Virus record (IMG/VR): IMGVR_UViG_2563366965_000005
Reading direction: 5' to 3' (one strand)
DNA length: 21,726 bases
DNA from: a virus
Taxonomy: Duplodnaviria > Heunggongvirae > Uroviricota > Caudoviricetes
The position numbers were made by a program, and so were the translations under genes. Positions 11,755 through 12,031 of the stretch are shown here, piece after piece (positions within the stretch are counted from its first letter, which is position 1; every line of letters begins with the position of its first letter). The notes under the pieces are model-generated. The model made no database searches. It was given only the letters and a program-made list of their open reading frames with translations, and was not told the DNA's origin.

Positions 11755-11902
11755 TAAGCAGACTCATTGTGTTTAGGGACATTGTACTGGAAGAAAACAT
11801 TTTAAACATCAGGCAAATAACCAAGTCACCAGCTAAATAATAAGTTAACAGACATGAGTCCCGGGATGAGATTCAACATTACCATTGCCCCATTTAAAGC
11901 AC

Positions 11903-11926
11903 AAAACCCGCTCATCAGCGGGTTTT
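11903..11926. terminator. Bidirectional intrinsic terminator hairpin (AAAACCCGC-TCATCA-GCGGGTTTT); candidate tR' of the late operon and 3' end of the plus-strand cspF transcript
   Basis: 9-bp GC-rich stem flanked by A-run and T-run on both sides; lies about 60 nt downstream of the candidate late promoter on the minus strand. Confidence 0.6.
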
Positions 11927-11971
11927 CTACTTTTTCTTAACGTCGGGTATACAAAGCCCATCGTTGAAAAA

Positions 11972-12000
11972 ATTTTATCCATATTTTTTGAAAAATGCAA
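11972..12000 (-). promoter_or_regulatory. Candidate sigma-70 late promoter (PR'-like) immediately downstream of Q: -35 TTGCAT, 17-bp spacer, -10 TAAAAT
   Basis: Read on the minus strand: TTGCAT (12000-11995), 17 nt, TAAAAT (11977-11972). Position just 3' of the Q gene and 5' of a terminator matches the lambdoid PR'-qut-tR' layout. Confidence 0.5.
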
Positions 12001-12031
12001 ACATCATGTCGCCATCTTCAGCAAAAATCAT

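Follow-up and report, generated by a model that had tools for sequence, protein, structure and literature searches.

Does the short interval just 3′ of the antiterminator gene of the Qin prophage hold the late promoter and terminator on which its Q protein would act? The window analysed here, i.e. the whole stretch of 21,726 nt from the IMG/VR record IMGVR_UViG_2563366965_000005, was identified from annotated K-12 features as the Qin cryptic prophage of Escherichia coli K-12. The 1.6 kb around the site are 100% identical to strain MG1655 and to many other strains, and adding 1,630,457 to a window coordinate gives the coordinate in NC_000913.3. The initial annotation, made from the sequence alone, had proposed a lambdoid late region (PR′-qut-tR′) on the minus strand directly after a gene that it called Q. 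Our analysis upholds this proposal on the combined grounds of membership of the Q-lambda family, the lambda register of the promoter, conservation in 33 relatives, annotations in the records of phages phi80 and SfV and an RNA 3′ end mapped by Term-seq. We put the probability at roughly 85% that the site is the Qin late-gene cassette, a lambda-like succession of PR′, Q-binding element (QBE)/pause element and tR′ that is served by the QuuQ protein encoded directly upstream. The features on which the argument turns are the following.

12032–12784, minus strand: ydfT/quuQ, the gene of the Q antiterminator, 250 amino acids (K-12 annotation, Pfam, phmmer search of the PDB, alignment)
12034–12032, minus strand: stop codon of ydfT/quuQ (sequence)
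11995–12000, minus strand: −35 hexamer TTGCAT of PR′ (sequence; identity 0.95 in 33 variants; same hexamer as the annotated −35 of phi80 pR′)
11978–11994, minus strand: 17-nt spacer TTTTCAAAAAATATGGA, candidate QBE (conservation; lambda and phi80 precedent)
11972–11977, minus strand: −10 hexamer TAAAAT (sequence, promoter scan)
11957–11965, minus strand: predicted +1 (A at 11965, K-12 1642422) with the pause element AACGAT (+1 to +6) and GGG (+7 to +9) (lambda homology)
11949–11953, minus strand: predicted pause positions, about +13 to +17 (by inference from lambda)
11939–11965, minus strand: 5′ hairpin of the PR′ RNA (minimum free energy fold, conservation, covariation)
11896–11926, minus strand: tR′, a bidirectional intrinsic terminator with its stem at 11926–11903 and the U-run UUUUGUGCUUU (scan, fold, Term-seq)

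Read on the minus strand from the stop codon of Q, the interval runs TAA-31 nt-TTGCAT-TTTTCAAAAAATATGGA-TAAAAT-TTTTTC-AACGATGGGCTTTGTATACCCGACGTTAAGAAAAAGTAG-AAAACCCGC TGATGA GCGGGTTTT-GTGCTTT. A sigma-70 promoter sequence is present directly after Q, is conserved and stands in register with lambda PR′. The decisive pause element had been overlooked in the initial annotation: six bases after the −10 hexamer lies AACGATGGG, which in sequence and spacing equals positions +1 to +9 of lambda PR′ and includes the sigma-dependent pause element of that phage. At such a −10-like element, sigma region 2 re-binds and Q loads (PMC9388147; PMC9191641). An exact match to AACGATGGG occurs at one site only in the window. 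When lambda PR′ was expressed as a composite pattern (TTGACT-N17-TAAATT-N6-AACGATGGG, at most 3 mismatches being allowed), a single match was obtained in the 21.7-kb window, at 11957–12000 on the minus strand, where the Qin site differs at 3 of the 21 specified bases; none of 100 shuffled sequences gave a match.

Conservation was measured across 33 distinct variants, taken from phage records, 80 IMG/VR loci and those GTDB genomic loci whose Q proteins are 63–100% identical to QuuQ. Column identity was 0.997 in the pause element and the adjoining GGG, 0.95 in the −35 hexamer, 0.91 in the spacer and 0.88 in the −10 hexamer (which appears as TAAAAT, TAAGAT or TAGGAT in relatives); it was 0.80 in the terminator, 0.51 in the linker and 0.49 just past the terminator. 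The terminator stems vary among the relatives (CCCGC/GCGGG, CCTCGC/GCGGGG, ACCGC/GCGGT), and a hairpin and U-run are kept at the same position. These segment identities, together with the position-kept terminators, indicate that Q, PR′, the pause element and tR′ are conserved as a unit, with a mosaic junction on the 3′ side. Homology ends a few bases past the U-run (about 11895), where at least five unrelated downstream sequences follow; judging from these alignments, the sharp junction 3′ of tR′ is likely to be a cargo-insertion hotspot.

The same layout extends well beyond close relatives of Qin. PR′, pause element and tR′ follow Q genes whose products are 93–100% identical to QuuQ (PhiR42_1, mEp460, Stx2c and Stx2k phages, Salmonella phage sal3) as well as those whose products are 33–42% identical (SF6, HK225, phi80, an Stx2a phage), and the late-cassette layout was also found downstream of Q at about 70 genomic loci. 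In 39 of 80 genomic loci of the Q-lambda family, AACGNTGG is found no further than about 80 nt from the Q stop, and most of the others have recognisable variants, for example AATGATGGG, AACAATGGG, AACACTACA, CATCGTGGG or GATTATGG. A terminator lies at about +25 to +70 in most of the Q-lambda-family loci scanned, and in all relatives examined the motif is situated 45–80 nt past the Q stop. A search of 5,426 complete E. coli genomes found the 147-nt module itself in 1,628 of them; in the RefSeq records sampled, no feature was annotated under the match (8/8). Contigs with the labels ‘Veillonella parvula MAG’ and ‘Chryseobacterium sp. 18061’ also bear enterobacterial Q-lambda-family genes, that of the former being 99% identical to QuuQ, and are likely to reflect binning or assembly contamination.

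The GC-rich hairpin with a T-run, the last component of the initial annotation, was found as placed. It reads AAAACCCGC-TGATGA-GCGGGTTTT (11926–11903), followed by GTGCTTT, and it starts at about +40 and ends at +63 from the predicted start. Its listing on the plus strand by the terminator scan reflects its bidirectional nature. With A- and T-runs on its sides, the hairpin lies between two convergent units, the PR′ RNA and cspF–ynfS, and it probably also ends the convergent cspF–ynfS transcript. The predicted transcript of 77 nt folds at −30.5 kcal/mol (z = −5.6 compared with shuffles) into a hairpin at the 5′ end and the terminator hairpin, joined by a single-stranded linker rich in A.

Independent data bear on this terminator. 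In the Term-seq analysis of MG1655 (Adams et al. 2021, PMC7815308, supplementary file 1), the dominant 3′ end at 1642356(−) corresponds to window position 11899, i.e. +67, which falls inside the U-run and 133 nt past the ydfT stop. This end is classed as ‘orphan’, is flanked by ...GCGGGTTTTGTGC on one side and TTTAAATGGG on the other, and is listed at least twice in the table. It implies that a minus-strand RNA of uninduced cells has its end at the predicted tR′; combined with the predicted start, it gives an RNA of about 67 nt, and it points to activity of PR′ upstream. Constitutive transcription from PR′ that terminates at tR′ is known to yield short RNAs in lysogens, such as lambda 6S RNA and StxS (PMC7547250), and the minus-strand 3′ end of uninduced K-12 agrees with this pattern. 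The same data set contains a second orphan 3′ end on the minus strand, at window position 11731 (K-12 1642188; PMC7815308), about 170 nt past tR′ and antisense to ynfS, an indication that some polymerase passes tR′ in uninduced K-12, or that the RNA is processed. No Rfam family was found on the element at gathering thresholds. The matches returned by an Rfam scan based on E values (Phe and Trp leaders, isrJ, isrK and P9, at 14–22 bits) were rejected as chance, terminator-driven look-alikes.

The gene that the initial annotation had called Q is indeed that of an antiterminator, namely ydfT/quuQ, the product of which matches the Q-lambda family PF03589 with 181 bits (cutoff 26.7; 4e-54). The only solved structures found to match QuuQ in a phmmer search of the PDB are Q-lambda entries (7UBM, 4MO1 and 7UBJ, with E values from 5e-36 to 1e-20), and the matches to 7UBM and 4MO1 span the N- and C-terminal parts of the protein, the best having an E value of 5e-36. 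The Q-lambda family (PF03589) has been described as distinct from Q21 (PF06530) and Q82 (PF06323) (PMC9388147), and in the Pfam and PDB searches QuuQ matched neither PF06530 nor PF06323. Phages 82 and 21, which had been put forward as comparators, were accordingly set aside; for a protein of the Q-lambda family such as QuuQ, lambda is the proper one. In an alignment of six Q proteins (QuuQ and those of lambda, phi80, HK225, SF6 and an Stx2a phage), the zinc-ligand cysteines are invariant. Residues ~121–159 of QuuQ constitute a CxxCxGxG zinc-finger insert, about 40 amino acids long, that lambda Q lacks and that matches Pfam DnaJ_CXXCXGXG. This additional finger is shared by the Q proteins of phi80, HK225, SF6 and the Stx2a phage, and lambda Q, the sole member with a solved structure, is thus the short exception among the six.

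Where would QuuQ bind? In lambda the Q site lies between the −35 and −10 hexamers (PMC6266700), and the phi80 record places it there as well. The corresponding Qin spacer, TTTTCAAAAAA..TGG, is conserved among members of the QuuQ clade; other Q clades have different spacers. Conservation within the clade, divergence between clades and the lambda and phi80 precedents together make this spacer a candidate Q site.

The RNA of the pause element may itself be engaged in a structure. In the minimum free energy fold of the Qin transcript, AACG (+1 to +4) pairs with CGUU (+24 to +27) and UGGG (+6 to +9) with CCCG (+19 to +22), and the resulting 5′ hairpin is retained in 27–28 of 28 close relatives. Across Q-lambda-type loci, lambda included, the pause-element RNA (+1 to +5) pairs with a segment at about +19 to +28, and the 3′ partner covaries with the pause element (AACG:CGTT, AACA:TGTT, AATGA:TCATT, TCGTG:CACGA, ATTAT:ATAAT). 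A Watson–Crick complement of at least 4 bp to +1 to +7 is present in 65 of 74 distinct leaders, as compared with 37% in cross-class pairings. When counted by pause-element class, a complement exists in 12 of 15 classes against 4.0 expected from shuffles (0 of 200,000 simulations reached 12) and, with the AACG classes excluded, in 9 of 12 against 3.4 expected (P about 5e-4), the significance being somewhat overstated in that these tests assume independent classes. The exact-complement and class-level tests were used instead of an RNAduplex energy test, which was confounded by GGG:CCC pairing. RNAalifold predicted no structure from a MAFFT alignment of 68 diverse leaders, because variable loop lengths shift the 3′ arms out of register.

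Covariation of the pairing across Q-lambda-type phages means that the hairpin could be a functional part of the cassette. It is tempting to speculate that this covarying hairpin is functional and apparently unremarked (the older lambda literature was not searched), and/or that the ~67-nt RNA is a small RNA (sRNA) of the StxS type, a proposition that we rate as rather unlikely. If true, the hairpin might serve in pause escape or Q loading, in blocking backtracking or in protecting late mRNA at its 5′ terminus, and a StxS-like sRNA would be carried by about 30% of E. coli strains, K-12 among them.

By analogy with lambda, the cassette would work as follows. Sigma-70 RNA polymerase would initiate minus-strand transcription at A 11965; sigma region 2 would re-bind the −10-like AACGAT (+1 to +6), causing the polymerase to pause near +13 to +17. 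Without Q, the enzyme would escape and then terminate at the hairpin and U-run, leaving a ~67-nt RNA that ends at 11899. With Q, QuuQ sitting on the promoter spacer would load onto the paused complex, with NusA probably needed as in lambda, and the modified, terminator-resistant polymerase would pass tR′ and the cspF/ynfS/cspB/ynfU island with its terminators to reach essQ-ydfR-rrrQ-rzpQ. The start site, the pause, the binding of Q to the spacer and the Q-dependent read-through are all inferred steps of this scheme. In lambda the pause occurs at +16/+17 and is stabilised by T+14-N-Y-G+17 (PMC9191641). Candidates for this T-N-Y-G motif are TTTG at +11 to +14 in Qin and, in relatives, additionally TATG at +15 to +18, where K-12 has TATA. 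The responsible position, window 11948 (+18), is A in K-12 and PhiR42_1, and G in mEp460, the Stx2c and Stx2k phages and sal3.

Several points weigh against this lambda-like interpretation. The start at 11965 is predicted from homology to lambda. The promoter hexamers and their 17-nt spacing are present where the initial annotation had put them, but its description of the promoter as near-consensus was overstated: TAAAAT agrees with the −10 consensus at 5/6 positions, whereas TTGCAT agrees with TTGACA at only 3/6 in the 17-nt register, and the promoter scan favoured as −35 the sequence TTTGCA with an 18-nt spacer (4/6 consensus). Bare sigma-70 matches are at chance level (11 sites in 5.5 kb, as compared with 9.5 ± 2.9 expected from shuffles), and since they are no commoner than in shuffled sequence, a bare promoter match is no evidence on its own. 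The A at +18 means that one T-N-Y-G pause match has been lost in K-12 (TATG to TATA), a change that might make the pause of the K-12 allele weaker. The 3′ end at 11899 could in principle derive from read-through of the ydfT mRNA. Moreover, Qin is cryptic, and production of QuuQ in K-12 is not a given. Finally, we found no paper on the binding of QuuQ to the spacer or on Q-dependent read-through in Qin, and the literature on ydfT, quuQ and the Qin late promoter or antiterminator yielded no description of the element.

Alternatively, the hairpin may be only a terminator shared by ydfT on the minus strand and cspF–ynfS on the plus strand, the promoter hexamers being inactive or due to chance and the mapped 3′ end resulting from ydfT read-through. 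This would be consistent with a bidirectional hairpin that the scan lists on the plus strand with a T-run, with the convergence of ynfS and cspF on it, and with a start at 11965 that rests on homology and a bare promoter score at chance level. A mere convergent terminator would, however, leave unexplained why 21 specified bases of lambda PR′ recur in register with 3 mismatches, which no shuffle reproduces, and why the pause element is 99.7% conserved as compared with 51% in the adjoining linker. In addition, the module accompanies Q beside unrelated cargo without a convergent gene, and the Term-seq signal forms a dominant peak 133 nt beyond the ydfT stop. We regard the shared-terminator explanation as highly unlikely. 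A further possibility, which is compatible with a lambda-like cassette, is that the present main role of the site in K-12 is to produce a constitutive, trans-acting ~67-nt sRNA of the StxS type and not to act as a late-gene switch. The dominant orphan 3′ end with its at least two Term-seq entries, the predicted succession of 5′ hairpin, A-rich single-stranded linker and terminator hairpin, the presence of cspF.ydfT.IGR as a node in the Hfq RIL-seq feature table and the precedents of StxS and lambda 6S RNA (PMC7547250) would all accord with such a role. Nevertheless, it appears distinctly unlikely, as the RIL-seq-based sRNA score of cspF.ydfT.IGR is very low (about 0.002, in a table without strand), the linker is the least conserved segment within the cassette (0.51), the run of U residues is short and not continuous (UUUUGUGC), no Rfam family rises above noise and the RNA is without known target.

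It could also be argued that the true late promoter on which Q acts is situated in another place, such as just upstream of essQ, and that the present site is a relic, given that ~1.8 kb and several terminators separate it from the holin gene. This we consider extremely unlikely: the sole exact AACGATGGG and the sole lambda-PR′-like composite in the window are at this site, the motif recurs 45–80 nt past the Q stop in each relative examined, and the long gap is common to intact phages. The genes and features that the Q-modified transcript of the lambda-like cassette would traverse are listed below.

8573–11754: path of the Q-modified late transcript, ynfS through rzpQ (K-12 annotation, Pfam)
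11665–11754, plus strand: ynfS
11398–11610, plus strand: cspF
10882–11097, minus strand: cspB
10581–10600: bidirectional terminator hairpin, called by the scan on the minus strand
10348–10518, plus strand: ynfU, a zinc-binding gene
9913–10128, minus strand: essQ, holin
9597–9908, minus strand: ydfR
9067–9600, minus strand: rrrQ, lysozyme
8573–9070, minus strand: rzpQ, Rz-like

The lysis genes (holin, YdfR, lysozyme and Rz-like) lie downstream on the minus strand, in the same orientation as PR′. The zinc-ribbon gene that the initial annotation had placed in the path of the late transcript is there; it is ynfU, located on the plus strand and so antisense like cspF and ynfS. The view that so long a read-through would be unusual did not hold, as phage 2H10 and PhiR42_1 share the order Q-PR′-cspF (antisense)-cspB-holin. 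In 2H10 (genus Glaedevirus according to its record), Q and PR′ are followed by an antisense cold-shock gene, a sense cold-shock gene and the holin gene. A full-length relative of Qin (48.7 kb), PhiR42_1 has Q and PR′ identical to those of K-12, the same cargo island and, downstream, lambda-like genes for terminase, head and tail. Phages that share this Q and PR′ differ in the cargo found from tR′ to the holin: phiSTEC1575-Stx2k carries hypothetical genes, three tRNAs and stx2k, mEp460 a DNA methylase and sal3 a short open reading frame (ORF). Insertion of cargo after tR′ is the rule among lambdoid phages, and Q-modified polymerase ignores terminators across thousands of bp (PMC9388147).

In phiSTEC1575-Stx2k, the Q protein is of the QuuQ type (~93% identical), the promoter and pause element are nearly identical, and the tRNAs and stx2k are located past tR′. 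The same module is found in 15 phages named Stx2c-converting, with Q ~94% identical, their assignment to stx2c being by name. As the same type of Q and PR′ precedes stx2k and occurs in phages so named, the promoter, pause element and terminator are relevant to toxin expression.

Some further features of the window deserve mention. A TTG-initiated ORF of 51 amino acids at 11845–12000 on the minus strand overlaps the −35 hexamer, leader and terminator; its counterpart in PhiR42_1 is annotated as a hypothetical protein (PV340562.1, 17597–17752), and it is probably a spurious call over the PR′/tR′ region. The product of ynfS is a verified 29-amino-acid protein (PMC6001520). The hairpin at 10581–10600 may also end the ynfU transcript, as suggested by an entry with plus-strand flanking sequence in the portion of the Term-seq table consulted. 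According to Rfam, cspB has a cspA-type 5′ untranslated region; at gathering level, such thermoregulators are matched for cspI (7971–8356, minus strand) and cspB (10866–11258, minus strand). Other matches at this level are IS009 (162–360, minus strand) and the ALIL frameshift pseudoknot of an IS element (17691–17807, plus strand).

How, then, does the Qin cassette compare with known systems? It resembles the PR′-qut-tR′ region of lambda, the source of 6S RNA, in having a PF03589 Q, a promoter just past Q, a 17-nt spacer, a 6-nt gap followed by the identical AACGATGGG at +1 to +9, a terminator and then lysis genes in the same orientation. The two promoters read TTGACT-17-TAAATT-TGACTC-AACGATGGG in lambda and TTGCAT-17-TAAAAT-TTTTTC-AACGATGGG in Qin. 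They differ in the length of the terminated RNA (~67 nt in Qin as compared with 194 nt in lambda) and in the spacer, the candidate QBE, of which 10/17 bases are shared, as expected for Q-specific sites. QuuQ, moreover, has the ~40-amino-acid zinc-finger insert relative to lambda Q, and Qin has ~1.8 kb of cargo before the holin, with three genes antisense.

With phi80, SfV, HK225 and mEp460, Qin shares a long Q with the extra zinc finger, a variant of the pause element at +1 and a short leader with a terminator ~40–70 nt past the start. The phi80 record (JX871397) annotates the pR′ −35 hexamer (TTGCAT, as in Qin), a Q site in the spacer, the −10 hexamer and a terminator ~50 nt further on, and the records of SfV and HK225 annotate the homologous terminator. 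The Qin-type promoter is shared by mEp460 and, by an 84.5% DNA match, by SfV, whereas the Q proteins of phi80 and HK225 are only ~36–38% identical to QuuQ and their spacers differ; the pause element of phi80 is AACGCT as compared with AACGAT in Qin.

In the StxS system (PMC7547250), a constitutive late promoter whose transcript is terminated just downstream in lysogeny yields an abundant short RNA, a pattern with which the Qin RNA 3′ end in uninduced K-12 agrees. StxS acts as an Hfq-binding sRNA; the Qin RNA is known from its 3′ end, and Rfam families of any kind gave no match to it above noise. The Q21 and Q82 cassettes (PMC9388147) display the same order of Q gene, PR′, sigma-dependent pause, terminator and late genes; unlike QuuQ, they use Q proteins of the unrelated families PF06530 and PF06323. 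Describing the Qin cassette closes a minor gap in the annotation of the best-studied bacterium and explains an ‘orphan’ K-12 Term-seq 3′ end. The cassette is a straightforward member of a textbook class, mechanistically nothing new, and follows the logic of lambda.

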